A stretch of 64,000 nt of DNA from a virus. The stretch is taken from the IMG/VR virus record IMGVR_UViG_3300021961_000019; one strand, written 5' to 3'. Below the pieces are notes generated by a model. That model was given only the letters and a program-made list of their open reading frames with translations, did not search any database and was not told the origin of the DNA. How positions within the stretch are numbered: position 1 is the stretch's first letter; the number at the start of each line of letters is the position of its first letter. Shown here one piece after another: positions 509 to 40,201 of this stretch. Both the position numbers and the translations under genes were made by a program.

Positions 509-537
509 ATCATAATGCTATTTACTCTTTTTGTCAA
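509..537 (-). promoter_or_regulatory. sigma70-type promoter upstream of tRNA-Pro
   Basis: TTGACA-17nt-TATGAT. Confidence 0.7.
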
Positions 538-766
538 CCTCCTTTTTTCTACGCTTCAGTTCTTGCTTAACTGCCTTTCCACCACTACGATCCACTACAA
601 GTTTTTGAATTTCCTTTTTGGTCGGTTTACGTGTTGGACCTTCATGCCTTTGAAGTGTATAGGTCTTAACACCATCAACTTCTTTGTAAGTTCCAGGAAC
701 TGCATGTGGGGGAGTTCCAGACTTTTTCCCTTCACAGATTTGATAGAATTCTCTATAAGTAAGCAT
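518..766 (-). CDS. 82-aa basic hypothetical protein with capsid-targeting-like N-terminus
   Basis: ATG start gives MLTYREFYQICEG; GATAAATA late box at 791-798. Confidence 0.7.
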   Translation of the reverse strand: MLTYREFYQICEGKKSGTPPHAVPGTYKEVDGVKTYTLQRHEGPTRKPTKKEIQKLVVDRSGGKAVKQELKRRKKEVDKKSK

Positions 767-777
767 CGTAGTTCCAA

Positions 778-939
778 TCACTTATGATTATATTTATCAA
801 ATGGAGCCCAGTGTTGCCAACCATACTTATGAATGGCCCAAATACCCATAATAGGAACAAAAACCAATAGAGCACTCATAATCCCTAGGGAAACTGGATT
901 TTGCATGACTGTCCTAACAATAAATTGAATAGTGTGCAT
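778..939 (-). CDS. 53-aa small membrane protein
   Basis: Read manually: MHTIQFIVRTVMQNPVSLGIMSALLVFVPIMGIWAIHKYGWQHWAPFDKYNHK; one hydrophobic segment. Confidence 0.6.
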   Translation of the reverse strand: MHTIQFIVRTVMQNPVSLGIMSALLVFVPIMGIWAIHKYGWQHWAPFDKYNHK

Positions 940-1005
940 GATCAGTAATCCATTTGTCTGATATTTACATCATAAACCCCCCAAAGGGAATGGGGGGTCG
1001 ATTTG

Positions 1006-1025
1006 GGACACTTTCTCAACTGTCC
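1006..1025. promoter_or_regulatory. Copy of GACASTT-N4-AASTGTC palindrome (others at 4461, 6901, 39508, 42455, 44298)
   Basis: GGACACTT-TCTC-AACTGTCC; about 30 nt upstream of TATGAT on the minus strand. Confidence 0.65.
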
Positions 1026-2119
1026 ACTCTACACATGTTGTCATGAATTTGATTCCGCTTCGGATTTTCCCGAACCTCATGTCCACCAAATTTATTTCGC
1101 ATACCATTCAATATGCGATTTGCAAAATCTCCTAATCTGCGACTCTCAAACCGCGCAAATAGCGCACTAGAAAGGACAGGAGCGGGAACCCCAAGGTCCA
1201 CAGCGGTAGAAACAGTCCAACGACCCTCACCACTATCGGAAACCCCTCCAGAGAATGATTCAAGTCCACTATCGCTGCGCAGAACAGAAGCGGTAAGGTC
1301 AAGTAACCAGCTGCCAACAACACTACCGCGACGCCAAAGCTCAGCCACCTCAGAAACATCAATATCGTATTGATAACTCTCCGGATCAAACATAGGAGCA
1401 ACTCCGGCATCACCCTCTTTGACATATTGTGACCCAAGATTCGCGTTATGCAGAATATTAAATCCTTCAGCATATGCTTGCATGATTCCATACTCAATTC
1501 CATTATGAACCATCTTCACAAAGTGCCCTGCGCCAGGACCACCACAATGTAACCACCCAAGTTCTGCAGAAGTTACGTCTGAGTCATAATTGGTGCGTTG
1601 TGCGGTATTGATGCTTGGGGCGAGCGCGTTGAAGATGGGGCTACAATAGGCGACTGCAGAATTTCTGCCTCCAACCATAAGACAGTATCCACGCTCCATA
1701 CCGTACACACCACCAGAAGTACCACAGTCAATATATTCGACGCCATACTGATCATGAATCCTTTCCGCTCGACGGCGGCTCTCCTTAAAATTGCTATTGC
1801 CATGATCAATAATAATATCTCCACGGCGACAAAATGGTAATAATTCATTAAGTGTTTCCTCCACAGTTTCTGCTGGAACCACCAGCATATAAACAGCACG
1901 TTCTTCACCTTGGAGAACATGTGAAAGGTTTTCAATGCTGGTGACTACACCACTAATTGCACCTTGCTCATACAAAGTAACTGCTGCAGCATAATTTCTG
2001 CGATATCCCCAAACATGAATCTGATCGTTTGTTTCTTGCAACAGTCGTCTGGAACGTTGAATAATTCTACGAGACATACCCTCGCCCAGGCGACCAAGAC
2101 CTATCATTCCAACACGCAT
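1016..2119 (-). CDS. gnd: 6-phosphogluconate dehydrogenase (decarboxylating), phage auxiliary metabolic gene
   Basis: GMIGLGRLG Rossmann motif, DCGTSGG, GHFVKMVHNGIEYG, MRNKFGGH. Confidence 0.95.
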   Translation of the reverse strand: MRVGMIGLGRLGEGMSRRIIQRSRRLLQETNDQIHVWGYRRNYAAAVTLYEQGAISGVVTSIENLSHVLQGEERAVYMLVVPAETVEETLNELLPFCRRGDIIIDHGNSNFKESRRRAERIHDQYGVEYIDCGTSGGVYGMERGYCLMVGGRNSAVAYCSPIFNALAPSINTAQRTNYDSDVTSAELGWLHCGGPGAGHFVKMVHNGIEYGIMQAYAEGFNILHNANLGSQYVKEGDAGVAPMFDPESYQYDIDVSEVAELWRRGSVVGSWLLDLTASVLRSDSGLESFSGGVSDSGEGRWTVSTAVDLGVPAPVLSSALFARFESRRLGDFANRILNGMRNKFGGHEVRENPKRNQIHDNMCRVDS

Positions 2120-2123
2120 AATA

Positions 2124-2399
2124 CTAGTCCTCCTCTTCTAATTCATCTTCATACGTGGATGGTTCTTCAAATAACTCTTCCATCTTCCGTTGCAAAATCA
2201 TCTTTTGCAGTGCTTTTAGATCGTCATCTTCCAGTTTCATCACAATCAATTCTTCTCCTGCTTTCACACCACGCATTTCTGGATGTATTTTATATTCTGG
2301 ACACTTAATATATCCATGAGTTTCTTTCATGACAATCATTCCATGAATGACCAAACTAAGGGCCACCAAGAATAATACTAGAAAGATTATGGGAATCAC
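2124..2399 (-). CDS. 91-aa membrane-anchored hypothetical protein (DUF2973-like)
   Basis: N-terminal TM segment, HPEM motif, acidic tail. Confidence 0.6.
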   Translation of the reverse strand: MIPIIFLVLFLVALSLVIHGMIVMKETHGYIKCPEYKIHPEMRGVKAGEELIVMKLEDDDLKALQKMILQRKMEELFEEPSTYEDELEEED

Positions 2400-2572
2400 A
2401 TTACGTTCCTCATGGCGTTTACAACAGTAATTAATCCATGGGTATAAAATGCAAGAACAGTTGCTCCAAGCACAGAACTAATCAATGTTGCAGTTCTGTT
2501 ATGCTTAGCCATCGCCTGTTTGATTGATTCATCAATCATTCTTTGAGTTTCTTCACGATCACTTTCAGACAT
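2396..2572 (-). CDS. 58-aa small membrane protein
   Basis: Read manually: MSESDREETQRMIDESIKQAMAKHNRTATLISSVLGATVLAFYTHGLITVVNAMRNVM. Confidence 0.6.
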   Translation of the reverse strand: MSESDREETQRMIDESIKQAMAKHNRTATLISSVLGATVLAFYTHGLITVVNAMRNVM

Positions 2573-2584
2573 AACAATATATAT

Positions 2585-2734
2585 TTAAAAGAATTTTTTT
2601 GGAAGGTCTTCCATTGGGTCCTTACCAGATCTCAGGATTGCACAAGCTCTTGAATAATACATGTTGTTTGTATTTCCAGAGGCTTCCATAGCTTCCTTGA
2701 TTTTTTTCCAGTTCTCTAGATTATGTGCATCCAT
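2585..2734 (-). CDS. 49-aa hypothetical protein
   Basis: Read manually: MDAHNLENWKKIKEAMEASGNTNNMYYSRACAILRSGKDPMEDLPKKFF. Confidence 0.6.
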   Translation of the reverse strand: MDAHNLENWKKIKEAMEASGNTNNMYYSRACAILRSGKDPMEDLPKKFF

Positions 2735-2758
2735 TAGTTTTTTTATCTTTAAGGACAA

Positions 2759-2844
2759 CGGTGAGTCAGGGATTCGAACCCTGGGAGGCTACTAACCTCG
2801 TCGGTTTTCAAGACCGATGCCATCAACCACTCGACCAACTCACC
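2759..2844 (-). tRNA. trnS: tRNA-Ser(TGA)
   Basis: Cloverleaf with long variable arm, TCGGT CTTGAAA ACCGA, G73. Confidence 0.93.
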
Positions 2845-2869
2845 AAATTGCTTCTATTATAATAACATA

Positions 2870-3121
2870 TTAGCGAATCTCAAAGTCCAATTTCTTAACT
2901 TTTCTTTGTCTTCTAGACTCTTGATAGGCAAGATCTTCATTCGATAAGACTCCGCCACATTTAGTTTTTGTTGGTGGAGTGATTAAAACAACCTTATTCA
3001 AATCAATTGCTGTAATTTTATCATTACTAATTGTTGTCATATTATCACAACCACAAGATATAGGTTTTGATAGATGATTCTCTATCTCCCTATTACAAAT
3101 TTTACATCTAACTCTCATCAT
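2870..3121 (-). CDS. 83-aa Cys-motif (zinc-binding-like) hypothetical protein
   Basis: CxxC...CGC motif; ORF track. Confidence 0.7.
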   Translation of the reverse strand: MMRVRCKICNREIENHLSKPISCGCDNMTTISNDKITAIDLNKVVLITPPTKTKCGGVLSNEDLAYQESRRQRKVKKLDFEIR

Positions 3122-3191
3122 TCAACTCATCGATACAATATTTAGATACTTCAAAACCGCGTTCTGCGGCAAATGGAAATATTCAATTGTA

Positions 3192-3263
3192 TGGGCGATA
3201 CTGGATTCGAACCAGTGACTTACCACTTGTAAGGAGGCCACTCTACCGCTGAGTTAATCGCCC
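3192..3263 (-). tRNA. trnV: tRNA-Val(TAC)
   Basis: Cloverleaf, loop CTTACAA, A73. Confidence 0.9.
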
Positions 3264-3275
3264 ACGTCAAGTTAT

Positions 3276-3551
3276 TTATGAAAGAGAAATAGCAAGATCT
3301 AAGGCACGTTTTGCTGAAGGAGCGATTGGATATCCAAGATGAAGACCATCTTTATCATATTGATACTCCTCAGATCTGTATAATTGAAATCCAAAAAGAT
3401 CATCTGTGGGAGATCCAACATCCCATACTGATACTGGTCTTACAAAATAAATCCCAGCATTCGCAACAACACGCCACCCAATTTCCACAAATCCCAGACC
3501 ACGAAGAGCACATTCTAATTTTAACGAATACCCTGCATCGTGCAAATTCAT
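3276..3551 (-). CDS. 91-aa hypothetical protein
   Basis: ORF fills the gap between tRNA-Gly and tRNA-Val; protein-like composition. Confidence 0.65.
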   Translation of the reverse strand: MNLHDAGYSLKLECALRGLGFVEIGWRVVANAGIYFVRPVSVWDVGSPTDDLFGFQLYRSEEYQYDKDGLHLGYPIAPSAKRALDLAISLS

Positions 3552-3599
3552 AGGTTCGGTTTACCGTAACTATGAATTTATTTATTCCCCGGAAGGGGA

Positions 3600-3671
3600 A
3601 GCGGCTGATCGGATTCGAACCGACGACGTTCTGCTTGGAAGGCAGACATTCTACCACTGAATTACAACCGC
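3600..3671 (-). tRNA. trnG: tRNA-Gly(TCC)
   Basis: Cloverleaf, TCTGC CTTCCAA GCAGA, U73. Confidence 0.93.
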
Positions 3672-3675
3672 AAAG

Positions 3676-3752
3676 TGGGGGCGGGAGTTGGATTTGAACC
3701 AACGTTCTGCGGCTTATGAGACCGCCGTGATACCTGACTTCACTATCCCGCT
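3676..3752 (-). tRNA. trnM: tRNA-Met(CAT), initiator-like
   Basis: Cloverleaf with A1:C72 mismatch, loop CTCATAA, CCA end. Confidence 0.8.
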
Positions 3753-3755
3753 ATA

Positions 3756-3968
3756 TTTGGGTGGGTGGTGAGATTCTATCATACTCACAATCAGGAGGTC
3801 GCACTGATAGTAACGTTTCCTGACACTCTCGGACTCCTTGATAGTGGATTCGCATGTCTCTGGTCTCCCAGTCACATGGCGGGCATCACCCCTGTCCTAA
3901 TATACATTATCCCGTGCATGACCGCATAGGATTTTTCTGTCACACCCTTTGGAAATCCGTCGATCTCC
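3756..3968 (-). ncRNA. ~210-nt structured RNA, candidate manA-type motif
   Basis: Helices GGAGATC/GATTTCC, CATGT/ACATG, CTGG-GAGA-CCAG, TCAGGA/TCCTGA, GTGAG/CTCAC and long-range GGGTG/CACCC; lies directly 3' of a tRNA. The family call is from recall. Confidence 0.5.
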
Positions 3969-3970
3969 AA

Positions 3971-4041
3971 TGGAGAATAGGAGAATCGAACTCCTAATAA
4001 GTGCTTGCAAAGCACCCGTTATACCGTTTAACTAATTCCCC
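3971..4041 (-). tRNA. trnA: tRNA-Ala(TGC)
   Basis: Cloverleaf, G3:U70 pair, loop TTTGCAA. Confidence 0.93.
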
Positions 4042-4049
4042 ATGTTTTT

Positions 4050-4078
4050 ATTTTAAACGACAATCATGAGATTGTCAA
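4050..4078 (-). promoter_or_regulatory. sigma70-type promoter upstream of tRNA-Ala
   Basis: TTGACA-17nt-TAAAAT. Confidence 0.7.
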
Positions 4079-4150
4079 GCCCCCGACAAGACTTGAACTT
4101 GCGACATCGGCTTTACAAAAGCCGCGCTCTACCAGCTGAGCTACAAGGGC
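4078..4150 (-). tRNA. trnT: tRNA-Thr(TGT)
   Basis: Cloverleaf, CGGCT TTTGTAA AGCCG. Confidence 0.93.
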
Positions 4151-4205
4151 GAATGAGTCGGATATGATGATCCCGACTCTTATGGAAGAACCGAAGTCCA
4201 TCCAA

Positions 4206-4278
4206 CTGGGGTGGCAGGGATCGAACCTGCGACCTAGATGTTAACAGCATCCCGCTACTACCGCTGAGCTACACCCCA
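4206..4278 (-). tRNA. trnN: tRNA-Asn(GTT)
   Basis: Cloverleaf, loop CTGTTAA, G73. Confidence 0.93.
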
Positions 4279-4285
4279 TTAATTT

Positions 4286-4357
4286 AACGTGGATTGGGAA
4301 TCGAACCCAAACTCCATGTGTGTTGTCCACCCGTCCTGACCACTAGACTACCCACGT
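4286..4357 (-). ncRNA. tRNA-like element with degenerate anticodon arm
   Basis: Acceptor ACGTGGG/TCCACGT, D arm GTCTAGTGGTCAGGAC and T arm TTGGG-TTCGATT-CCCAA are intact; anticodon arm is only GTG/CAC with loop GACAACA. Confidence 0.7.
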
Positions 4358-4421
4358 ATGATGGGTTAAGTGTGATATGCCTCATAAGGACATAACAGGG
4401 ACTTAACCTCTGTCACTTTAT

Positions 4422-4450
4422 ATAGTAACAAACTTTTGATGGGTTGTCAA
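4422..4450 (-). promoter_or_regulatory. sigma70-type promoter for downstream tRNA block
   Basis: TTGACA-17nt-TACTAT, preceded by GGACAGTT-N4-AACTGG palindrome at 4461-4479. Confidence 0.75.
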
Positions 4451-4478
4451 CCCCCCATGTTCCAGTTTCCAAACTGTC

Positions 4479-4949
4479 CTATCCCATCACATATTCTATC
4501 CATTCAGTTACACCACTTTTCTGAACGTCCAGGTAGACCCTATTAAAAGGTGCTACAGGTTCTTTCTTCAAAGTCATGTTAGTTTCTGACAGAAGTTTGT
4601 TTCCCTTTTTCAAGTTACATTTAGTGCAACAGGCAACTAGGTTTTCCCATGTTTCCCGTCCACCTTTTGAACGTGGAATCACATGATCCAGTGTCAGATC
4701 CTTATCAGATCCACAATACTGGCACTCATGATCATCTCTCTTGTATATTAGAGCTCTTGTTGGATAAGATCCCCTACCCATATGAAAGGGAATATGTACA
4801 TAATTGACCAAACGTATTACTCGCTTGGTGATAAGCCTTGCCTTCTCTTTAAAGAGAAGAACTATAGCTCTCTTCCAATTAGTGAATTGCAATGGTTCAT
4901 ATGAACTGTTCAGAACCAATACTGTTGAATACGGTTCTACTAATTCCAT
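4479..4949 (-). CDS. HNH endonuclease
   Basis: RD..CQYCG...TLDHVIPRSKGG..TWENLVACC..CN..K motif; CTAAATA late-like box at 4971-4977. Confidence 0.92.
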   Translation of the reverse strand: MELVEPYSTVLVLNSSYEPLQFTNWKRAIVLLFKEKARLITKRVIRLVNYVHIPFHMGRGSYPTRALIYKRDDHECQYCGSDKDLTLDHVIPRSKGGRETWENLVACCTKCNLKKGNKLLSETNMTLKKEPVAPFNRVYLDVQKSGVTEWIEYVMG

Positions 4950-4980
4950 AGTCCTATCACACTGTAATGTTATTTAGAGG

Positions 4981-5053
4981 CGTCCCTTGAGAGATTCGAA
5001 CTCCCGACACATAGGTTCGTAGCCTACTGCTCTGTCCACTGAGCTAAAAGGAC
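4981..5053 (-). tRNA. trnR: tRNA-Arg(ACG)
   Basis: Cloverleaf, loop CTACGAA. Confidence 0.92.
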
Positions 5054-5054
5054 T

Positions 5055-5129
5055 TGGCGAAGGGCCAGAGACTTGAACTCTGAACTTTGGTTTTGGAGAC
5101 CAAGATGTTACCAATTACACCAACCCAAC
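5055..5129 (-). tRNA. trnW: tRNA-Trp(CCA)
   Basis: TTGGT CTCCAAA ACCAA; G73-CCA; two U-U mismatches in acceptor stem. Confidence 0.85.
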
Positions 5130-5130
5130 G

Positions 5131-5206
5131 TGGTATCCGTGAGAGGACTCGAACCTCCAACAAATAGATCCTTAGTCTATTGCCTCTTCCATTGGGCTAC
5201 ACGGAT
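5131..5206 (-). tRNA. trnL: tRNA-Leu(AAG) with short variable loop
   Basis: ATAGA CTAAGGA TCTAT, A73-CCA, D arm similar to the Leu(TAA) gene. Confidence 0.82.
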
Positions 5207-5207
5207 T

Positions 5208-5281
5208 TGGTTCCAGAACTAGGACTCGAACCTAGATAAACGCCTTCAAAGGGCGGTGTCCTGCCATTAGACGATTCTGGA
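5208..5281 (-). tRNA. trnQ: tRNA-Gln(TTG)
   Basis: Loop CTTTGAA, U1-A72, CCA encoded. Confidence 0.9.
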
Positions 5282-5282
5282 T

Positions 5283-5360
5283 TGGAGTTCAGGGTGGGAT
5301 TCGAACCCACGGTAAAGAAGTTTTGCAGACTTCCGCATTCGACCACTCTGCCACCTGAAC
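5283..5360 (-). tRNA. trnC: tRNA-Cys(GCA)
   Basis: GAAGT CTGCAAA ACTTC, U73-CCA. Confidence 0.9.
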
Positions 5361-5392
5361 ATTGAACTATCTGGACTTTCCGGATAGTTGAG

Positions 5393-5464
5393 AGCCCTTA
5401 GTGAGAATCAAACTCACGACCGCATTCTTACCAAGAATGTGTTCTATCACTGAACTATAAGGGC
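5393..5464 (-). tRNA. trnT: tRNA-Thr(GGT), atypical D and T loops
   Basis: CATTC TTGGTAA GAATG; D loop lacks GG; T loop reads TTTGATT. Confidence 0.75.
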
Positions 5465-5466
5465 GG

Positions 5467-5540
5467 GGTGTAGGACGGGACTTGAACCCGCATAAACCAG
5501 ATTCACAATCTGGCGCATTGGCCAATTATGCTACCTACAC
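5467..5540 (-). tRNA. trnH: tRNA-His(GTG)
   Basis: CCAGA TTGTGAA TCTGG, C73; the -1 base is T, not G. Confidence 0.9.
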
Positions 5541-5541
5541 A

Positions 5542-5615
5542 TGGCAGTAGATGGATTTGAACCACCGACCATAGGAATATGAGACCCGTGCTCTACCAAA
5601 CTGAGCTATACTGCC
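5542..5615 (-). tRNA. trnM: tRNA-Met(CAT), probably elongator
   Basis: Cloverleaf with G1-C72, A73, weak anticodon stem, loop CTCATAT. Confidence 0.82.
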
Positions 5616-5617
5616 AA

Positions 5618-5708
5618 CGGAAGTGGTTGGATTCGAACCAACGGTGCCTATTACTAGACACGGAATCTTAGCAGGATTCTGCGATAAGCCTGACTCTGCC
5701 ACACTTCC
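5618..5708 (-). tRNA. trnS: tRNA-Ser(GCT)
   Basis: Loop CTGCTAA, long variable arm, G73. Confidence 0.92.
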
Positions 5709-5762
5709 TCAATGTTGCCTTGAATTATCCTAAAGTTGTTTTGGGTTGCTTCAAGGCAACAA

Positions 5763-5834
5763 TGGAACCGACAAGATTTGAACTTGTGACCGCTCGGTTA
5801 TCAGCCGAGTGCTCTACCGCTGAGCTACGGTTCC
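5763..5834 (-). tRNA. trnI: tRNA-Ile(GAT)
   Basis: CTCGG CTGATAA CCGAG, A73. Confidence 0.93.
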
Positions 5835-5837
5835 AAG

Positions 5838-5911
5838 AGGGAACAGTCGGACTTGAACCGACAACACCATGATCTTCAGTCATGTGCTCTACCAATTGGA
5901 GCTATGTTCCC
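5838..5911 (-). tRNA. trnF: tRNA-Phe(GAA)
   Basis: CATGA CTGAAGA TCATG. Confidence 0.92.
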
Positions 5912-5913
5912 AA

Positions 5914-5985
5914 TAGTCCTAACGGGATTCGAACCCGTGTTCTCACCTTGAAAGGGTGATGACCTAACCGCTAGTCGATAGGACC
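5914..5985 (-). tRNA. trnE: tRNA-Glu(TTC)
   Basis: Loop CTTTCAA, Glu-type D arm. Confidence 0.92.
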
Positions 5986-5988
5986 AGG

Positions 5989-6060
5989 CGACCCATAGGG
6001 GATTCGAACCCCTGATACCTCTTAGACAGAGAGGCGTGATCACCACTTCACTAATGGGCC
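5989..6060 (-). tRNA. trnD: tRNA-Asp(GTC)
   Basis: CCTCT CTGTCTA AGAGG, G73. Confidence 0.92.
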
Positions 6061-6135
6061 TGGAGCGGACTACGGGATTTGAACCCGTGACATCAACCTT
6101 GGCAAGGTTGCGTTCTACCACTGAACTAAATCCGC
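6061..6135 (-). tRNA. trnG: tRNA-Gly(GCC)
   Basis: CAACC TTGCCAA GGTTG, U73-CCA. Confidence 0.93.
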
Positions 6136-6139
6136 AAGG

Positions 6140-6230
6140 TGGGAGAGGAGGGAATTGAACCCCCGATGGTTCCGATGTAACGGTTTTACAGACCGCAGCC
6201 ACACATATTGCCAACAGTAGCCACTCTCCC
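6140..6230 (-). tRNA. trnY: tRNA-Tyr(GTA) with enlarged D arm
   Basis: GCGGT CTGTAAA ACCGT, long variable region, A73, 24-nt D arm. Confidence 0.85.
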
Positions 6231-6268
6231 GAACAGTTTATGTTTAACGACCGAACTGCGGCGGTGCA

Positions 6269-6343
6269 GGGGGCATCTGGGATTCGAACCCAGGACTAAC
6301 CGATTAAGAGTCGGATACTCTGACCTGACTGAGTTAATGCCCC
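6269..6343 (-). tRNA. trnK: tRNA-Lys(CTT)
   Basis: Loop CTCTTAA, acceptor GGGGCAT/ATGCCCC. Confidence 0.88.
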
Positions 6344-6346
6344 TTA

Positions 6347-6419
6347 TGGGTCTGGTGGGACTCGAACCCACGATCCACCGGTTAAAAGCCGGGTGCGCTC
6401 GCCGCTTAGCTACAGACCC
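6347..6419 (-). tRNA. trnK: tRNA-Lys(TTT)
   Basis: Loop CTTTTAA, A73. Confidence 0.92.
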
Positions 6420-6467
6420 AATAAAGGTTTAAATTTTCAAGGTTCAATCAAAAACTATCACAGGCAA

Positions 6468-6502
6468 CAAAAAAGGGGAGGAAACCTTAGTTTCTCTCCC
6501 CT
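6468..6502 (-). terminator. Intrinsic terminator after 35-aa micro-ORF
   Basis: AGGGGAG...CTCCCCT stem followed by a T run. Confidence 0.7.
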
Positions 6503-6526
6503 GTTCTTGCTTTTATGGATTACATG

Positions 6527-6634
6527 TTACATGTGTTTATCCATACCCGCAAACAGGGGAGCTCCCTCAATATGCTGCCAGGTGCGGCCGCAATCGAGAT
6601 TGCTAAACTTAATTGTGAGCATTGGATAAGACAT
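6527..6634 (-). CDS. 35-aa microprotein with its own late promoter
   Basis: MSYPMLTIKFSNLDCGRTWQHIEGAPLFAGMDKHM; TATAAATA at 6655-6662; terminator downstream. Confidence 0.55.
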   Translation of the reverse strand: MSYPMLTIKFSNLDCGRTWQHIEGAPLFAGMDKHM

Positions 6635-6719
6635 TGTTTTCGACCTAAGTGTTTTATTTATAGGGTTTTAATTTTTGCGTTACAAAAATTAACAGGAGCA
6701 ATCAATCAAGATTGCTAAG

Positions 6720-6793
6720 CACCCCAGGTAGGATTCGAACCTACGACTCACGCTTTAGAAGAGCGTTACTCTATTCCACTGAGTTACTGAGGC
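6720..6793 (-). tRNA. trnR: tRNA-Arg(TCT)
   Basis: ACGCT CTTCTAA AGCGT. Confidence 0.93.
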
Positions 6794-16016: not shown

Positions 16017-16232
16017 CTATTTATCCTCCAAGTCTTTCACCCATTTCTTGTATGTGTTGGAAACCTTTCGATAATCAACTTTCTTTCTTCTATTCATGAA
16101 CTTTAGAAGGGGATCAAATCCAGCAACAGGGCCCTCTGCTGGGGAGGATGCACTCATACCTCCCTGAGTTCCAGGGGCATTTGCCACCATCATTTCCCGA
16201 ATAGTTTGAATTACCCTATCAATCTTCTTCAT
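16017..16232 (-). CDS. 71-aa hypothetical protein
   Basis: Internal ATG MKKIDRVIQTIREM; G/P-rich core and basic tail. Confidence 0.65.
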   Translation of the reverse strand: MKKIDRVIQTIREMMVANAPGTQGGMSASSPAEGPVAGFDPLLKFMNRRKKVDYRKVSNTYKKWVKDLEDK

Positions 16233-16614
16233 CGTCCTTCTTGTAGATCTGTTGCAATTCTTTGTAGCAATCAAGGTCAATCGGAATATCATGAAAAAAG
16301 CATTTAGGGAACTCTGGCAGTCTATTCATAAACAGAATGAATGTTTTTGTGACTGACCACAGTTCCTGCTCCAACTTATAAAAAAGCATAGGAGTTGCTG
16401 CATCACCAAATATATTATATAAAATCATAAAGTGATTAATTAGAAGGTGAGTTTTTAGCTCACCCGTGCTTTTATATCGCTTTAAGAGTCTTTTAATATA
16501 TTTGAAATAATTAAGATCCTTATCAAAATCCTCTTTCGTTACTGATTGAGGATTTTGATAGTTCTTTATAGCGAATAATAGAAAATTATCACTGTTCAGT
16601 TCATTAAACTGCAT
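16219..16614 (-). CDS. 131-aa conserved T4-like phage hypothetical protein
   Basis: F.ELN.DNFLLFAIKNY.NP...F..DL..FKYIKRL pattern recalled from T4-like phages. Confidence 0.8.
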   Translation of the reverse strand: MQFNELNSDNFLLFAIKNYQNPQSVTKEDFDKDLNYFKYIKRLLKRYKSTGELKTHLLINHFMILYNIFGDAATPMLFYKLEQELWSVTKTFILFMNRLPEFPKCFFHDIPIDLDCYKELQQIYKKDDEED

Positions 16615-17691: not shown

Positions 17692-17964
17692 CTATTTATC
17701 CAAATTAGACTCGTATTTTTTAGTCTTTGGATTCCATTTCCTAACTTCACCCTTTCTCAAGGGTGGAGTGTCATCATGCCTCGTTTTCCAATGTTTACCA
17801 AATTTCATTCTCATCTTTCTTTCCAAATTCTCTCTCTCCGACTCATCATCTTTTTCACGTTCCCTAGAGGACAAATATCCTGCAAAAGGTTCACTAGTTT
17901 CATACCTCATATTTCTTCGGAAATAATCAATTACGAAGTCAATTTTCTTGTCGAAATTGTCCAT
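17692..17964 (-). CDS. 90-aa hypothetical protein
   Basis: ORF coupled to the 929-aa gene; PLRKGEVRKW motif. Confidence 0.65.
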   Translation of the reverse strand: MDNFDKKIDFVIDYFRRNMRYETSEPFAGYLSSREREKDDESERENLERKMRMKFGKHWKTRHDDTPPLRKGEVRKWNPKTKKYESNLDK

Positions 17965-20753
17965 CAGTCCCTCGCAGAATAATACTTCTCTCTTGCCTTT
18001 GCTTCTCCCCTCTCTTTGGAAGTATGACCATGCTTGATCACTCTATCAACCTGACGATTAGCCAGTCTACGTTGAGTCTCTGAAGGAGTTTCCTTCTGAC
18101 CTCTCACCTTTGGTTCTTGGCGGGATCCAGGAAACTTCGTCTCATGCTCCTTCTCTGCCCTGTGCTTGAGGTTGGTGATGCCCGCCTTAAGACGTTGCTC
18201 ACGACCCTTTCTTGCCGCTGCCAGCGACTTCATAGCGGCATCTCTACGTGCCTGCTTCGCGGCATCAGGTGCTGCCCCATGCCTATCTGCTGCTGTAGAC
18301 TCGCCAAGTTCTCCAAGTGCTTTTTGCTTACGAATCTTCTTAGGATTCTTGGTCTTGTCTGCAGAGTAGTTATTATCATCCTCATTATCAGGATCTACAG
18401 CACTACGATGTCTGGTGCGTCTTTCTTCATCATCCATATTTGCACGACTTCTCTTTGCTTCATCGGGAGAATATTTTCTACCGCTGTTGTACCATTCTTT
18501 ACCTACATGACCTCTCTTTTCAGCATCAGCAGATGCCTCTCTACGCTTATTCTTCTGACGATTTGCTTTGAAGTCTTTCATGGTCATGCCTTCTTCAAGT
18601 TCATCTTCAAACTCAACTTCCTCTGTATTCATAGGAAGTTTGTTTTGCTGTTGCAGTCTCAACTTCTGCTTCTCAAGTTGCTGCTTCTTCATTTGCAACC
18701 TCTTCATATTCTGAAGTTGCTGCTTCCTTAGATTTTCCTGTCGCTTGTCAGCACTAGTTTGAGTTGCTCTTACATCATCATCAGCGGTTGTTTCTTCCTG
18801 ATCAACAATTGCAGACTCTTTCACTTCAGGCAGTTCACTACGCTTAGTCTTAGCATAGTCACGAAGTTGCTTAGTGGTCATGGTTTTGGCCAGTTTGGCA
18901 ACTGTCACAGAAGGTGCTTCCATTTCACCCGTCTTGGTTGCATATGCCATACCCATCAGTTTTTGCTGCTTAGCAGAAACTGCTTCTTCCTTCATAGCAT
19001 CAGCAACTCTTTGTGCTGCCTTTCTAATACCACGCTTCAGAGAAGTCTTTGCTCTCTGAACCTTTGGTTCTGCAGCAACCTTCAATTCTCTTGCCTTATT
19101 ATATGCCTTCACGGCAAGTTTTCCAAGAATTTCTTTTGCTCTTGACTTGACACTTCTCTTTTTGGGGCCCTCTGTATCATGACCATAAGTTACTGTTGCC
19201 TCAATAAGTGCTTCGCTTGCAAGGTCAAGATCATATCCTTCAAGAACCAATTCTTCCAGAATTTGCTCAATATCAAACTCCTCTCTATTAAGTTGCTTTT
19301 TCTCAGCAGGAGTTAAAGCACCTCTCTGTGCTCCTCTTGCTGCTTGCTTTGACTTCACCTTAGGATCATCAGACTTGTGACCATATCCATGGAGACCAGG
19401 GGAAGAAGAAGTGGTCTTACGGAAATCACCTCTTTGTGCTCTGGCAAGATTTTGTCTCTGCTTTTCTTTATTAGCATCACCAAAGGTTGGTCTGTCTGCT
19501 AGTTTGGTTGCTCTATCAGCAGCCTCACCGCCACCAGTTGACTTAGCAATCTTATTACGAATTGCGGTCTCATCATGACCACGTTTCGCCATCGCGGTTG
19601 CTTCATCAATTTCTGAGACCAGAGGATCTGGTGTAATCAAATCAACAAATTCAACATAGTCATTTCCATTTGCATCCTGAATAGTGACAGACTCTTTGGG
19701 AACACAATTCGGGACCTTTTTACCACCCTTCTTCTTCATTCCTACTTGCTGATATCCATCCCAACAAGGATCATCACTCACTTCTTTTGCCTCAAGAACC
19801 ACTCCACCAATCTCAGAAATTGCGGCAGTCACTTCCTCAGTCTTGAGGTTTGGGTTGAGGATGACTTTATTGTTTACCTTCTTTTCCTTAATTTCATTTT
19901 CACCCTCATCTTCCTTTGGAGCAACTACTTCACGAAGATCATTTCTCCAGTTTGAGAAGGCTTCCTTTCTTACTTTCTTTTCCTTCGCTGGGTTTGGTTT
20001 TACTGCCTTTCCACCGGGAGGATTATTCTTACCAGAAACACCCCTATTTGCTTCTGCTTCGTCATGATCAAAGTCAGGATCCTCCATAGGATCATACCAC
20101 CCTTTACCCTCACTTACACCATGAGACTTATCTTTAGCAATCGCAGCAGAACGCTTTTGTCTACGATTCAAAAGATACTTATCTGTCTTATCATGGTCGC
20201 CATCATTATCAATATCCTTATCCTCTTTGCCAACGGGATCAAGACCCTTACCAGACTTTACTTTTGCAGTTTGTTCACCACGCGATGCTTCTGCATCATA
20301 TGCCTTTCCATAGTGGGTCATTTCGACCGACTTAATATTTGGATTTGCACGAAGTTGACTAATCTTTTCGCGGGTTGCTCTTCTAACGTAACTTCTACCA
20401 GTTTCCTTATCAGTAACACGAATCTGATATTTCTCAACTGGACCTTCCTTCTCTTCCTTAACTGGAGAGGGGTTTACCAGACCCAACTTTTCCTTAACAG
20501 CAAGTTTCTCAGGACCGGTCATAGTTGTATGACCCATATACTGACCATATGCCTGATCTACCTTAACACCTTCTCTCTTAGAGCGATATCTAATATCATA
20601 TACCGCTTGACGAACACGTTTAGCGGATGATTCTTCATCATCCTTACCCTTCTCAACATGCTTGCCAGAATCAGATCTTGACTTACCTAACTTAGGTTCA
20701 AAGACCTCTTTCATATAAACATCAGAGATCGCATTTAGAGGATTGACGGTCAT
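17964..20753 (-). CDS. 929-aa modular low-complexity late protein (putative internal head polyprotein)
   Basis: Basic modules separated by Glu-rich linkers; CATAAATA at 20785-20792. Confidence 0.85.
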   Translation of the reverse strand: MTVNPLNAISDVYMKEVFEPKLGKSRSDSGKHVEKGKDDEESSAKRVRQAVYDIRYRSKREGVKVDQAYGQYMGHTTMTGPEKLAVKEKLGLVNPSPVKEEKEGPVEKYQIRVTDKETGRSYVRRATREKISQLRANPNIKSVEMTHYGKAYDAEASRGEQTAKVKSGKGLDPVGKEDKDIDNDGDHDKTDKYLLNRRQKRSAAIAKDKSHGVSEGKGWYDPMEDPDFDHDEAEANRGVSGKNNPPGGKAVKPNPAKEKKVRKEAFSNWRNDLREVVAPKEDEGENEIKEKKVNNKVILNPNLKTEEVTAAISEIGGVVLEAKEVSDDPCWDGYQQVGMKKKGGKKVPNCVPKESVTIQDANGNDYVEFVDLITPDPLVSEIDEATAMAKRGHDETAIRNKIAKSTGGGEAADRATKLADRPTFGDANKEKQRQNLARAQRGDFRKTTSSSPGLHGYGHKSDDPKVKSKQAARGAQRGALTPAEKKQLNREEFDIEQILEELVLEGYDLDLASEALIEATVTYGHDTEGPKKRSVKSRAKEILGKLAVKAYNKARELKVAAEPKVQRAKTSLKRGIRKAAQRVADAMKEEAVSAKQQKLMGMAYATKTGEMEAPSVTVAKLAKTMTTKQLRDYAKTKRSELPEVKESAIVDQEETTADDDVRATQTSADKRQENLRKQQLQNMKRLQMKKQQLEKQKLRLQQQNKLPMNTEEVEFEDELEEGMTMKDFKANRQKNKRREASADAEKRGHVGKEWYNSGRKYSPDEAKRSRANMDDEERRTRHRSAVDPDNEDDNNYSADKTKNPKKIRKQKALGELGESTAADRHGAAPDAAKQARRDAAMKSLAAARKGREQRLKAGITNLKHRAEKEHETKFPGSRQEPKVRGQKETPSETQRRLANRQVDRVIKHGHTSKERGEAKAREKYYSARD

Positions 20754-21973: not shown

Positions 21974-22003
21974 ATTTATAATTCTTGCATTTTTATTTAT
22001 ATT

Positions 22004-23197
22004 TCAATCAGATGACCAATTTTTATCTGCGGTAAAGTTTGCTCGCGAAAATTCAAGTCTATCAACAAGTTTTAAGGCAGATCCAGATTTGATTGCAACA
22101 AATCCCTCTGGCGCAGTAACTTTGTATCCATCACCAGTTCTCAGGAATGTTCCAAAGTCCTTCACCATTTCAAGTTTACGAATTACAATATTTTTTGCCT
22201 TCTGCAAATTAATATAAGAAGCGACTGTAAAATATACAGATCTGCTATTCTTGGTCAAGAAGGTTAATCCATCTGCCTTAATCTTTGCATATTTATCTCT
22301 AGCAGCAGGAGTTTTTTTACTACCAATCTCCTTATCCAAAAGTGAAGAATAGTAAGTCTTGAATCCTTCAGAAACTTTTTTCACATTAGTGATAGGGTTG
22401 CCAGACCGAATGTATGTATTGAAATATTGCTTAAACAAAGTGGATAGTAAGAATTTACCATCACCAGTCTCACCCAAAATATCTAAAAATGCAGATGCTT
22501 GCTTCAAAGATCCAGTCGCCATATTTACGGCAGACTTATATTTTTGATGCTCAGTTGGTGAAAAATTAGCAGCGCCGGAAGCATCACTAAATGATGCTGT
22601 TGCAGCATAAACATCAGGACAATCTTGGAATTTAGAAATGTCCACACCAAAGGATGCATTCATACTTTCCAAAGATGATCCACTATATTCAGTATGAAAA
22701 ACAATTCCAACTTTTGCCCTTGAGATTTTAGATCCAAGTTTCGAATCAACCGGGACAGTATATACAATAGTATTTGGTTGGAAACTATGAACTCGTTCTC
22801 CAGCAATTGTCTTAATACTCACATCATCCGTGAAAAGAAGGTCTCCCTGAATTACATTTGTAATTCCAAGTTTGGGAAGATGCTCTAGACATGCCTTTAG
22901 TTTAGATGCTAGTTGCCCAGAATAATTTTGATCTATATCGCCGGAAGTAAACATCAACTTCGGATTTGTTTTTGCAAAAACAGATTTTGTTCCAACAAAA
23001 AAGCATCCTGTGACAGGTTCAATTCCACAGATTACGGCAGGTGCTCCATCCCACTTTGTTGTGATGCGGATAGAAGATCTTGGTTCCGTGAGCATAGTTC
23101 CAAGCTCATTTAAAAATGTAATTGCATTTTTTCCGCCAGCAGAACCATGATTTAAAATATCATCTTCAAGGTGTTCAAGGTGAGTGTTTTTTGCCAT
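22004..23197 (-). CDS. 397-aa conserved phage protein (DUF6267-like) with ligase-like motifs
   Basis: MAKNTHLEHLED start; KWDG, QGD, EGFV and LKLVDR motifs. Confidence 0.85.
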   Translation of the reverse strand: MAKNTHLEHLEDDILNHGSAGGKNAITFLNELGTMLTEPRSSIRITTKWDGAPAVICGIEPVTGCFFVGTKSVFAKTNPKLMFTSGDIDQNYSGQLASKLKACLEHLPKLGITNVIQGDLLFTDDVSIKTIAGERVHSFQPNTIVYTVPVDSKLGSKISRAKVGIVFHTEYSGSSLESMNASFGVDISKFQDCPDVYAATASFSDASGAANFSPTEHQKYKSAVNMATGSLKQASAFLDILGETGDGKFLLSTLFKQYFNTYIRSGNPITNVKKVSEGFKTYYSSLLDKEIGSKKTPAARDKYAKIKADGLTFLTKNSRSVYFTVASYINLQKAKNIVIRKLEMVKDFGTFLRTGDGYKVTAPEGFVAIKSGSALKLVDRLEFSRANFTADKNWSSD

Positions 23198-31176: not shown

Positions 31177-31887
31177 TTACCTGAGAGACAAGCTGTTGAC
31201 CTTAAGATTTCTTAAATGCTCACTCATCTTATCAAGATATCCGCGATTACGCAACTCCTTGAACACCAGATTTTCTACAGCAAATTCACCTCCCTTCTGA
31301 ATCGAAGATGATCTCATGTTTCTAAACTTTTCCTTAAGTTTCATGAATGCATCACGATCATCTGCACGATTATTAATCAAGAAATCAATCTTTTCCATAT
31401 AATGCTTAACCTTACTAGCAATACACGGATCTGAAAGATTGACTTGTTTATGAACTGGTTTGCGGATCCACTTACTTTTTTGTAGGGAAAAAATTCCCTG
31501 ATCTGATGGGAAAGGTTCTCTAATGTCTTGAGCATACAATTCTACATCATGTCCATATATTTTAATGTCATGAGTTAATGCCCACAGTTGCTTCTTATCT
31601 TTCAAGTAGTCATCAATTAAATCTGGGCAATTAGCAATCTCTCTCTTGTCAACCAGTAGATGCAAATCCAAATCAGAATATTTTGTATAGTTGTAATTTG
31701 CATTTCCACCAACCAGAGTAATATCCTTAATTGCAGAATTTGGAATATTAGCAAATTCTGCCCACTCACCAGCGATACGCAAAAGTGCTTCTCTAACATC
31801 AACTTTAATATTATCATCATCCCAGACTTTAGGATTTAGTCGGTCATGATAGCGTAAGGTTAATTGTAATTCTTTAAATGTTTTCAT
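31177..31887 (-). CDS. Pol-beta superfamily nucleotidyltransferase
   Basis: GGNANYNYTKYSDLDLH (G[GS]x9DxD) plus distal HDVE; N-terminus MKTFKE. Confidence 0.85.
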   Translation of the reverse strand: MKTFKELQLTLRYHDRLNPKVWDDDNIKVDVREALLRIAGEWAEFANIPNSAIKDITLVGGNANYNYTKYSDLDLHLLVDKREIANCPDLIDDYLKDKKQLWALTHDIKIYGHDVELYAQDIREPFPSDQGIFSLQKSKWIRKPVHKQVNLSDPCIASKVKHYMEKIDFLINNRADDRDAFMKLKEKFRNMRSSSIQKGGEFAVENLVFKELRNRGYLDKMSEHLRNLKVNSLSLR

Positions 31888-31943: not shown

Positions 31944-31973
31944 GCGCCGACGATATTCAATACTATTTAGAAT

Positions 31974-34890: not shown

Positions 34891-34897
34891 AATAACC

Positions 34898-35842: not shown

Positions 35843-35862
35843 AATTTAAATAGATCATATTT

Positions 35863-35891: not shown

Positions 35892-36029
35892 CACTCTTGT
35901 CTCAACAATTTCACATCCCTCAGATTCAAGACGTTCAATCATACTATCAAACACCTCCTCATCCCAACAAAATGACAAGCCATTTTGCCCAGACAAATTG
36001 GTGTATTGAACATAATAAGTAAATCCCAT
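35880..36029 (-). CDS. 49-aa hypothetical protein
   Basis: Read manually: MGFTYYVQYTNLSGQNGLSFCWDEEVFDSMIERLESEGCEIVETRVDTD. Confidence 0.55.
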   Translation of the reverse strand: MGFTYYVQYTNLSGQNGLSFCWDEEVFDSMIERLESEGCEIVETRVDTD

Positions 36030-36031
36030 AA

Positions 36032-38273: not shown

Positions 38274-38313
38274 AATAATCTCCAATAGCAAATACTCACA
38301 AGACTTTTTTTAC

Positions 38314-38342
38314 ATTATATCAGAAAGGAGCTCCGTTGTCAA
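38314..38342 (-). promoter_or_regulatory. Consensus sigma70 promoter
   Basis: TTGACA-17nt-TATAAT. Confidence 0.85.
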
Positions 38343-39441
38343 CAGGAGATTCTTCCTGGCCAGGTTGAAAATCCGGATCAACCTTATCATAGAGTTCCAT
38401 AAATGCAGATTTGGTTTCATTATCGAAACGATTAACACAAACCTTGATTGCCTTAGACTTGTCGCGGAAAATGGAATATGCACGAATAATGTGAACAAGA
38501 CGACGGGTGCTGATGATCTCATCAATACCACCATCAAAGAATGTCTTGCGGATCACATCTGCCCAGTCAACAAGTCGCTTGCAGAAGTCACGATCCTCAA
38601 TTCCAAGTTCCAAAGAAATACCCTCAAGGATCTTCTGCTCTACGGTTACGCTAGGATACTCCTGCTCCATCGTAACAGGGAAACGCTCAAGGAATGCCTC
38701 ATTCAGCACGTTTGTGCCAATGAAACGTCCATCATCGGATCCCTTACCTTTTGTGTTTGCAGTAGCAACCACGTTGAAACCAGCAGCGGGTTTCACGAAA
38801 CGTCCGATCTTTTTCAGGAAGACTCCTTTCCCCTCAAGGATTGATTGAAGGCAAAGAATTTTGTTGGAAGCCAGGTCAATTTCGTCAAGCAGTAGAACCG
38901 CACCGCGCTCCAAGGCTTCGATGACCGGACCATTATGCCAAGCAGTTTCACCGTTGACCAAACGGAATCCGCCAATAAGATCATCCTCATCAGTTTCAAT
39001 AGTAATGTTTACACGAATAATTTCACGCTTAAGTTGGGCACATGCCTGCTCAACACTAAAAGTCTTACCATTCCCAGAGAGACCGGTAATGAATACAGGA
39101 TAGAAAATACCAGACTTCAGGATCTTCTTCACATCAGAAAAATTGCCAAAGGGAACAAAAGTATGATCCTTATCAGGAACAAGACTATTTGTATCTTCAG
39201 CGTTAGGGATCACAGAAATTGCACTATAGCTATGCTCAATTTTCTCAATATCTTTTTTAGTCACTTCAAGATTCCACTTACCACGACCAACTTTAAACTG
39301 ATCCAAACGCTTAGTTACGGTTGGATACGAAACTCCATGAGTTGTGCAATATTCCCGGACATTTTCAGCAGTAATATCCACACCGAAAGAACCACGAAGT
39401 TCATCAATTACAGAGTTGTTGATTTTGCTTTTGAATGCCAT
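38320..39441 (-). CDS. cobS: MoxR/CobS-like AAA+ ATPase
   Basis: GLSGNGKT, LLDEID, ATANTKG, AFLERF; phage CobS-like family, not evidence of cobalamin synthesis. Confidence 0.88.
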   Translation of the reverse strand: MAFKSKINNSVIDELRGSFGVDITAENVREYCTTHGVSYPTVTKRLDQFKVGRGKWNLEVTKKDIEKIEHSYSAISVIPNAEDTNSLVPDKDHTFVPFGNFSDVKKILKSGIFYPVFITGLSGNGKTFSVEQACAQLKREIIRVNITIETDEDDLIGGFRLVNGETAWHNGPVIEALERGAVLLLDEIDLASNKILCLQSILEGKGVFLKKIGRFVKPAAGFNVVATANTKGKGSDDGRFIGTNVLNEAFLERFPVTMEQEYPSVTVEQKILEGISLELGIEDRDFCKRLVDWADVIRKTFFDGGIDEIISTRRLVHIIRAYSIFRDKSKAIKVCVNRFDNETKSAFMELYDKVDPDFQPGQEESPVDNGAPF

Positions 39442-39507
39442 CAGGGGGTTGTTCCTCTCATCTACCCCTTTAGTATACATCCCTCAAAGACCCCGACGCA
39501 CAAAAAA

Positions 39508-39527
39508 GGACAGTTCTGAAACTGTCC
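39508..39527. promoter_or_regulatory. Perfect palindrome GGACAGTT-CTGA-AACTGTCC upstream of AAA ATPase
   Basis: 30 nt upstream of TATACT (39472-39477, minus strand). Confidence 0.7.
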
Positions 39528-39534
39528 CCAAGAA

Positions 39535-39684
39535 TCAACTTTTGTAGCGTTCACATGCTTCATCAAATGGAATTATATTGCCATCAACATCTTTATAGAA
39601 GACTTCTTTACCGCGCATTCTTGCCTCATATGCAACCATACGGGACATCATATTGGTGTTCTGTAGAATTACTTTTTTGCTCAT
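39535..39684 (-). CDS. 49-aa hypothetical protein
   Basis: Internal ATG MSKKVILQ. Confidence 0.5.
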   Translation of the reverse strand: MSKKVILQNTNMMSRMVAYEARMRGKEVFYKDVDGNIIPFDEACERYKS

Positions 39685-39685
39685 G

Positions 39686-40201
39686 TCAATCTTTCTCAAA
39701 GGTAAATGTCTTATTCTTAACTTTGGTGTCAAATTCACCAGTTCTCCCCGGTCTCATTTTTCCCTGAGGAACTCTCTTACCCTTACCTGGCCATGCTCCT
39801 TTTTTGGTGCCAACAAGATCACCAGATCCGCTGGGTTTCTTCTGAACCAGGACAGCATCTTGCCCATGCTTTGCGCCCAGCTTTTCAACTGCCTTCTTAA
39901 ACTTCCTCTTACCCTTCTTTCCAGAGCTAATGATGTGCGACTTTTCACCAACCTTTCTTCCTTCTGGGGATCCATCATCCTCAGTATATCTTCCCTGTGC
40001 CTTTGTTGGTCCTGGGAGTCCAGCGCCCTTAATGTCCTTCTCCATTTGACGAGAACGTGCTTTATTCTCTTTCTTGGATTTGTCTCCACGTTCAGCAGAA
40101 ACAATTGCCAATCCACCTTTCTTTGATTTCTGGACAACTCTGGAAAGTCCCCCCTCTTGGAGGGACCTACACTCAGTCATGAACTCCCTAAAAGTCTTCA
40201 T
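39686..40201 (-). CDS. 171-aa basic late protein with capsid-targeting-like N-terminus
   Basis: Start MKTFREFMTE; GATAAATA at 40230-40237. Confidence 0.78.
   Translation of the reverse strand: MKTFREFMTECRSLQEGGLSRVVQKSKKGGLAIVSAERGDKSKKENKARSRQMEKDIKGAGLPGPTKAQGRYTEDDGSPEGRKVGEKSHIISSGKKGKRKFKKAVEKLGAKHGQDAVLVQKKPSGSGDLVGTKKGAWPGKGKRVPQGKMRPGRTGEFDTKVKNKTFTFEKD

Follow-up and report, generated by a model that had tools for sequence, protein, structure and literature searches.

Leaders resembling the T4 capsid-targeting sequence probably direct enzymes into the head of a T4-like cyanophage

Introduction

In T4, internal proteins enter the head by means of a capsid-targeting sequence (CTS), MKTYQEFIAE (PMC8442874), in which amber-suppressor work has assigned positions 4 and 7 to targeting and positions 8 and 10 to processing (reviewed in PMC9026906). 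These internal proteins are diverse and basic and have the leader alone in common (PMC3012670). Here, we analyze a 64,000-nucleotide stretch of viral DNA (IMG/VR record IMGVR_UViG_3300021961_000019, referred to as the window), in which four genes start with leaders resembling the CTS that likely mark their products for packaging in the head of a cyanophage.

The closest described proteins are T4 IPII and IPIII (and IPI), which likewise start with a 10-residue leader displaying an aromatic residue at position 4, Phe at 7, an aliphatic residue at 8, Glu at 10 and a small residue next. In T4 as in the window, the cargo is basic and mutually unrelated, and the same phage possesses a gp21-type protease and a gp22 core. 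In contrast to the T4 proteins, which are small protein inhibitors, the cyanophage cargo includes recognizable enzymes, namely, an S-adenosylmethionine (SAM) lyase and two nucleotidyltransferases. Moreover, the cyanophage infects a marine cyanobacterium, its cargo genes are scattered instead of forming a single internal-protein locus, one leader has its cut motif at residues 10-12 while another is shortened, and targeting and cleavage are predicted from sequence.

Other systems are related in part. T4 Alt, a head-packaged, gp21-processed and injected ADP-ribosyltransferase that acts before phage gene expression, is a functional analogy, but the cyanophage enzymes belong to other families and Alt is processed at both termini (PMC9026906). 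The ejection proteins of the giant phages phiKZ and SPN3US are also packaged in the head and cut after Glu by a homologous prohead protease, but most of their propeptides exceed 100 residues and show the motif A-x-E or S-x-E, whereas the cyanophage leader is of the short T4 type (PMC5694885). Finally, one of the four window proteins belongs to the same Pfam family as the SAM lyases of T3 (gene 0.3) and Svi3-3 (structures 7ock, 8bb1 and 6zm9), which also provide its top fold matches, and all of these presumably counter defense by removing SAM. The T3 enzyme is an early gene product, made after entry. Unlike it, the cyanophage protein combines a CTS-like leader with a late-type box and has a homolog in the virion of cyanophage S-CREM2, and it would therefore arrive pre-made.

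The first-pass annotation of the window, which was made from the sequence alone, had presented the packaging of these enzymes as the best candidate for an undescribed system. This is too strong, since CTS-directed internal proteins are textbook knowledge in T4 and the association of cyanophage enzymes with virions is published. Literature searches combining the CTS with cyanophage or Synechococcus returned T4 and giant-phage papers only, none of which links the CTS to cyanophage cargo, and the new part appears to be the link between the CTS and the virion enzymes of cyanophages.

Results

Four genes start with CTS-like leaders

As claimed by the first-pass annotation, four minus-strand open reading frames (ORFs) encode proteins with N-termini resembling the T4 CTS, and all exist with the starts that it had chosen (Table 1). 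For the SAM lyase and the small basic protein, the ATG that it preferred is backed by homologs that begin there, though the program listing the ORFs extends both to upstream TTG or GTG codons. Only these four match the regular expression M[KL][TS][FY]x[ERQK][FL] among the 705 ATG-started ORFs of at least 40 aa on both strands, compared with a chance expectation of ~0.03-0.05, which is a rough estimate from residue frequencies for an expression composed after the data were seen. The four determinants of the T4 CTS all fit in two of the leaders, those of the SAM lyase (F4/F7/M8/E10) and the cytidylyltransferase (F4/F7/L8/E10). In the small basic protein, Y4 and F7 fit and the processing motif is displaced by two residues, being I-x-E (I-C-E) at residues 10-12. 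The Pol-beta leader, already singled out as the weakest match, is shortened, reading MKTFKE-LQLTLRYH. It has Leu at position 7, lacks Glu at position 10 and fits the determinants at position 4 (Phe) only.

Table 1. Coordinates of the head module, the leader-bearing genes and their upstream boxes in the window
Feature	Position (nt)	Strand	Basis or remark
gp20 portal	58011-59678	-	strong Pfam match
gp21-type prohead core serine protease	54608-55294	-	Pfam Peptidase_S77, E 1.2e-33
gp22-type scaffolding core protein	53423-54559	-	Pfam T4_CASP, E 4.4e-75
gp23 major capsid protein	51944-53365	-	Pfam Gp23, E 2.3e-148
SAM lyase-family protein, 171 aa, isoelectric point (pI) 10.3	39686-40201	-	Pfam S-AdoMet_lyase
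Leader MKTFREFMTE of the SAM lyase	40172-40201	-	predicted cut after E10
Late-promoter-like box GATAAATA	40230-40237	-	34 nt upstream of SAM lyase start
Pol-beta-type nucleotidyltransferase, 236 aa	31177-31887	-	GG-x9-SDxD signature, fold matches
Shortened leader MKTFKEL	31867-31887	-	runs straight into conserved LTLRYH..LNPKxW domain start
Weak box (C)TAAATA, not the full NATAAATA	31964-31969	-	77-82 nt upstream of Pol-beta gene, just past stop of Hsp20-like gene
Cytidylyltransferase-like (TxGH) nucleotidyltransferase, 401 aa	20768-21973	-	Pfam, PHROG, motifs
Leader MKSFSRFLSE, followed by Ala	21944-21973	-	
Conserved N-module LGLxGDGHGGWxD	~21809-21934	-	alignment of homologs
Two NATAAATA boxes	21973-21980, 21994-22001	-	upstream of cytidylyltransferase
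Small basic protein, 82 aa, pI 10.0, 27% K+R	518-766	-	no family match
Leader MLTYREFYQICE	731-766	-	I-x-E motif at residues 10-12
Late-promoter-like box GATAAATA	791-798	-	30 nt upstream of small basic protein

The leaders are conserved among IMG/VR homologs of these proteins. That of the SAM lyase, MK[TS]Fx[EQD]F[MVI]xE, is present from the first residue in 77 of 80 homologs, with Cys next in 76 of those, and several homologs read MKTFQEFIAE, one residue off the T4 CTS. For the cytidylyltransferase, MK[STNGR][FL]xxF[LIFV]x[ED] opens 79 of 80 homologs and is displaced by one residue in the remaining one; across an alignment of 21 diverse homologs, M1, K2, F7 and E10 are invariant, and S3, F4 and A11 nearly so. 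All homologs of the small basic protein (41/41) open with M[LI]TF[RK]EF[YL]x[IV]CE. The predicted consensus for the cyanophage leader is M-K-[TS]-[FY]-x-x-F-[LIMV]-x-E followed by a small residue, and it occurs on several unrelated basic proteins.

Homologs of three of the proteins are found in virions

Published proteomes place relatives of these proteins in purified particles. Sullivan et al. 2010 report the putative cytidylyltransferase T4-GC190, the family of the window enzyme, in purified S-SM1 virions (PMC3037559), and the S-CREM2 virion contains 52 proteins, including the SAM hydrolase ORF6 (19 peptides), the cytidylyltransferase ORF154, the kinase ORF14 and many hypotheticals (PMC10665884). 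ORF6 and ORF154 are homologs of the window SAM lyase and cytidylyltransferase, respectively, while a third virion protein, ORF156, is 57% identical to the Pol-beta nucleotidyltransferase. When the whole S-CREM2 genome was scanned, the ATG-started ORFs matching the regular expression were ORF6, ORF136 and ORF154, all three of which are virion proteins. The probability of this occurring by chance, given 52 virion proteins among 219 ORFs, is ~(52/219)^3 = 0.013. Inspection of the N-termini of all S-CREM2 virion proteins adds ORF14, which has a GTG start and the sequence KRFDAFLTE, and ORF13 (MKDLHSFLTE). Since homologs of three cargo families are present in published virion proteomes, packaging of the cargo in the head is likely.

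The phage encodes the machinery that would process the leaders

A module of gp20, gp21, gp22 and gp23 genes together with matches to Kyanoviridae identifies the source of the window, as judged from its genes, as a T4-like cyanomyovirus that encodes gp21/gp22 maturation machinery of its own. All the long ORFs of the window lie on the minus strand. The DUF6267 protein (22004-23197) has its best matches, with ~60% identity, in the Synechococcus myoviruses S-8S53, S-CAM9 and S-PRM1 (Kyanoviridae), and the gene order hypothetical protein, DUF6267, cytidyltransferase and large hypothetical protein is common to the window and S-CAM9. A megablast of the region against isolate phages revealed no near relative, the nearest isolates showing ~60% protein identity.

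The gp21 protease is the expected remover of the leaders and the gp22 scaffold their expected docking partner. While gp22 contains ten [LIMV]xE sites with a small residue next, gp23 displays a single predicted maturation site, QSLME|AP (residues 55-57, nt 53195-53203), which shares the form [LIMV]-x-E|small residue with the ends of the leaders. By analogy with T4, gp23 would be cleaved at this site, which we take to lie near the position where T4 gp23 is cut.

The leader is specific and occurs on many unrelated proteins

We next considered the leader beyond the window, using a back-translated DNA pattern corresponding to M-K-x-F-x-x-F-[LIMVF]-x-E, with Phe or Tyr allowed at position 4 for T4. 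Five large cyanophage genomes gave 10 matches on the gene strand and one control match. In T4, there were no control matches and the pattern picked out exactly ipII, ipIII and gp61.1, missing ipI. The last of these hits, gene 61.1 (NC_000866.4 18966-19130), encodes an uncharacterized 54-aa protein that begins with MKTFKEFIKE, a full CTS-like leader.

A scan of the IMG/VR collection for leaders with Lys encoded by AAA, which leaves out those with AAG, yielded at least 120 contigs. Among the matches listed, 117 of 122 open ORFs of at least 50 aa, in most of which a stop codon precedes the start by a few codons, and 113 of 120 contigs encode proteins similar to window or S-CREM2 proteins. Once the leader is removed, the sampled proteins fall into at least 46 mutually unrelated groups, with A, S or G as residue 11 in 26 of the 46. 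The mature proteins are markedly basic, with a median pI of 9.7, the remaining ORFs of these contigs having a median of 6.6 (p 8e-6). Diversity, basicity and a leader as the one common element likewise characterize the T4 internal proteins (PMC3012670). The codons for F and E in the leader vary synonymously between genomes, and selection therefore acts on the peptide. In addition, AlphaFold2 (AF2) models of the SAM lyase and Pol-beta proteins have a predicted local distance difference test score (pLDDT) below 50 at the leader residues, which are therefore not part of the folds. A non-cyanobacterial marine myovirus, Paraglaciecola Antarctic GD virus 1 (MW805361.1), has five ORF starts matching the leader, including that of the SAM lyase-like gp48 (MKTFSEFLGE), and the leader is thus not confined to cyanophages.

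Late-type boxes precede most of the leader genes

The first-pass annotation had placed a late-type promoter box upstream of each of the four genes. Three of them have NATAAATA 26-34 nt upstream, and the Pol-beta gene has only a more distant CTAAATA (Table 1). The gene strand of the window has 32 copies of NATAAATA versus two on the other strand, and the box is upstream of three of the four leader genes versus 12 of 70 other genes (p 0.025). At homologous loci, TAAATA is found within 45 nt upstream in 75/79 cases for the SAM lyase, 58/79 for the cytidylyltransferase, 47/74 for the Pol-beta protein and 30/41 for the small protein.

The predicted cargo comprises three enzymes and a small basic protein

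The SAM lyase matches the PF23780 S-AdoMet_lyase profile over residues 33-168 with a score of 46.4 bits (cut-off 28, E 4.7e-12). Consequently, three of the four cargo genes encode enzymes, and not two as counted previously. The best matches of the protein in a Foldseek search of the Protein Data Bank (PDB) are the phage SAM lyases 6zm9, 7ock and 8bb1 (probability 0.98-1.0, E 2e-3 to 1e-2, template-modeling (TM) scores 0.3-0.5), while PDB sequence and profile searches returned nothing. The S-CREM2 SAM hydrolase (ORF6, 3837-5081) is 414 aa long versus 171 aa for the window protein, and a tblastn alignment between the two runs past the window stop codon by a few residues (39647-39738), such that these relatives differ by a C-terminal extension.

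The cytidylyltransferase corresponds to the cyanophage "cytitidyltransferase" T4-GC190 and is composed, in this order, of the leader, the N-module, a P/Q-rich linker, the catalytic core and a C-terminal domain. It matches the PF01467 CTP_transf_like profile (28 bits, cut-off 21) and phrog_395 "cytidyltransferase" (E 2e-109), and its motifs FGRFNPPTxGH and GMSAS(K/R)xR are conserved across 21 homologs. PDB sequence and profile searches with this protein and with the Pol-beta nucleotidyltransferase gave nothing useful. As can be seen in the alignment, the leader is followed by a few variable residues, the conserved N-module and the variable linker. Relatives from jumbo phages align only from residue 105 onward, and the leader and N-module are therefore additions to the enzyme core. 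The N-module in full, A..LGLxGDGHGGWxD..G.FVAKT..GKLKF (residues 14-55), is also found behind leader-like motifs in S-CREM2 ORF14 and ORF12, the virion kinase ORF14 having two copies, and phrog_3561 (a 934-aa profile) opens with the same leader and module. Leader and module may form a shared head-cargo cassette. Directly upstream, the minus-strand DUF6267 gene encodes TTKWDG, which resembles the KxDG motif of ligases. A single profile, phrog_455 (764 aa), spans both DUF6267 and the cytidylyltransferase; therefore, the two are fused in some phages and probably functionally linked.

The Pol-beta-type protein contains GGNANYNYTxxSDxD, in which G60, G61, D72 and D74 are invariant in the alignment, and it scores 17.9 bits with PF01909 NTP_transf_2, under the cut-off of 21. 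Its AF2 model (pLDDT 85) has weak fold matches (TM 0.2-0.3), nearly all of them to Pol-beta nucleotidyltransferases (CdnE, CdnC, CdnD, ANT and MNT). Its relatives are mixed in their leaders, which are full-length in some and shortened in others. Full leaders, such as MKTFGEFINES, MLSFKKFLEEN and MQGFRQFLIES, stand directly before TL(R/K/E)YH..LNPKxW, while in the window copy and close relatives a five-residue deletion takes out the F-[LI]-x-E half of the leader. This shortened leader is probably not cut. In other relatives, an N-terminal domain of ~45 residues (..GKKVLGxHxS...QLxAIEIS..) precedes an internal (K)TFKEHLEE|A and then the enzyme, which would mean a long propeptide rather than one of 10 residues.

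The small basic protein showed no family in Pfam and PHROG searches. We considered it as a homolog of the S-CREM2 virion protein ORF13, as both contain TP(P)HAV, and rejected this on the basis of a BLASTP E value of 0.1. Its gene is inside a cluster (55-6793, minus strand) in which 29 tRNA genes, all on the gene strand, are interspersed with small ORFs.

Further window proteins have possible features of processed head proteins

Three other minus-strand genes show possible cleavage sites or related motifs. The first (17964-20753) encodes a 929-aa basic protein (pI 9.5), segments of which correspond to seven distinct PHROGs. The protein displays 11 [LIMV]xE sites that precede a small residue, versus 4.2 in shuffled sequences (p 0.002), and may be a polyprotein that is packaged in the head and cut by gp21. 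The second is a small ORF, 16017-16232 (within ORF 16017-16292), whose product starts with MKKIDRVIQTIRE and includes GPVAGFDPLLKF. This product is similar to the N-arm of the window gp23 (TAGFDPVLISLIRR) as well as to the N-terminus of ORF160, a virion protein of S-CREM2, and its GPVAG(F/Y)DP motif is also present in several leader-bearing small IMG/VR proteins. The third (42478-44064) encodes a 528-aa basic protein starting with MNPQDLRDLME|AYGQVYE|A, in which DLME|A resembles SLME|A of gp23, making it a further candidate for a processed head protein, in this case with a non-aromatic leader.

Discussion

Our analysis supports the central proposal of the first-pass annotation, that enzymes are packaged in the head via CTS-like leaders, since the T4 determinants are matched, gp21 and gp22 are encoded in the window and three homologs are present in the S-CREM2 virion. 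We hold with good confidence that the leader-bearing proteins are head cargo, carried by a cyanophage counterpart of the T4 CTS that works as in T4. By this mechanism, the leader would bind the gp22-based scaffolding core during prohead assembly, and the protein would be enclosed. The gp21 protease would then cut after Glu, freeing the mature basic protein among the packaged DNA, and the mature protein would exit with the DNA at the next infection. On entry, the SAM lyase would deplete SAM and thereby blunt SAM-dependent restriction or defense. Further cargo would consist of the cytidylyltransferase, which is nicotinamide mononucleotide adenylyltransferase (NMNAT)-like, the Pol-beta-type nucleotidyltransferase and the small, very basic protein. 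Core binding, cleavage by gp21 and ejection are steps that we infer by analogy with T4, and we likewise infer how the enzymes would act in the host.

Several points weigh against this reading. The literature contains, as far as our searches found, no measured docking, cutting or ejection for any cyanophage. The authors of the S-CREM2 study do not exclude contamination, as abundant late proteins could co-purify with virions (PMC10665884). Among the four proteins, the Pol-beta enzyme has a leader lacking F7, the aliphatic residue 8 and E10, the small basic protein gains no support from the virion proteome in the S-CREM2 comparison, and the AF2 model of the SAM lyase has a pLDDT of 60 and weak fold E-values. 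Finally, the first-pass annotation expected the leader to be enriched at late genes and named the lack of such enrichment as a ground for refutation; in the IMG/VR sample, 20% of leader ORFs and 20% of other ORFs are preceded by a box, a box within 60 nt being a weak proxy for late expression in operons. Late expression is thus supported for these four families and is not, by this crude proxy, a general correlate of the leader.

It could be argued that the shared N-terminus is merely a generic efficient translation start, in an AT-rich phage with AAA as codon 2, or an amphipathic helix devoid of targeting function, the detection in virions being due to carry-over of late proteins. Phage proteins commonly have Lys at position 2 and Ser or Thr at position 3, and the contamination raised for S-CREM2 and the missing late-box enrichment in the broad IMG/VR sample would both agree with this. 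However, the conserved positions are exactly those that function in the T4 CTS, and their codons vary synonymously. Nearly all contigs with the pattern are T4-like, the pattern picks internal proteins in T4, the cargo is significantly basic with a small residue after Glu, and every strict-motif ORF of S-CREM2 (3/3) is a virion protein. We therefore find this explanation unlikely.

It is just as unlikely, in our estimation, that the proteins are loaded by the leader only to act in the head or during assembly (in DNA condensation, charge neutralization or scaffolding) without forming an injected payload. T4 internal proteins are thought to help neutralize DNA, which fits well with the strongly basic cargo, and neither the 82-aa protein nor many of the sampled families have an enzyme domain. 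However, it is not obvious what a SAM lyase and two nucleotidyltransferases would act on in a DNA-filled head, and in T4, IPI* and Alt exert their action in the host after ejection (PMC3012670; PMC9026906). That the leader is some other signal (a degron, a signal for the membrane or secretion, or one that tags proteins for a different phage complex) resembling the T4 CTS by chance found no evidence in its favor and is highly improbable, since ten residues with three or four hydrophobic ones and a conserved Glu are unlike a Sec or Tat signal, some homologs are a single residue off the T4 CTS and the virion proteomes point the opposite way.

Head packaging by a CTS-like leader, our preferred explanation, would account for a recurrent observation. 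Cyanophage virion proteomes repeatedly hold "nonstructural" enzymes (cytidylyltransferase, kinases, SAM hydrolase), and a leader on exactly these proteins offers a mechanism for their presence. The leader thus probably explains how cyanophages carry ready-made enzymes to the next cell, and it allows further packaged proteins to be sought in genomes and metagenomes by a simple sequence rule. Should the cargo be injected, the SAM lyase and the nucleotide-handling enzymes would be active ahead of all phage gene expression, which bears on the ways in which abundant ocean phages overcome host defenses. More tentatively, and with somewhat less than even confidence, we suggest that the CTS-like leader is an address label, readable in sequences, for a large uncatalogued set of head-packaged and injected effectors in marine T4-like phages, including pre-made counter-defense enzymes. 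If so, the SAM lyase would counter SAM-dependent restriction or bacteriophage exclusion (BREX)-like systems, the NMNAT-like enzyme would counter NAD-depleting defenses, and the arsenal that ocean cyanophages deploy in the first minute of infection would be predictable from genomes and metagenomes alone.

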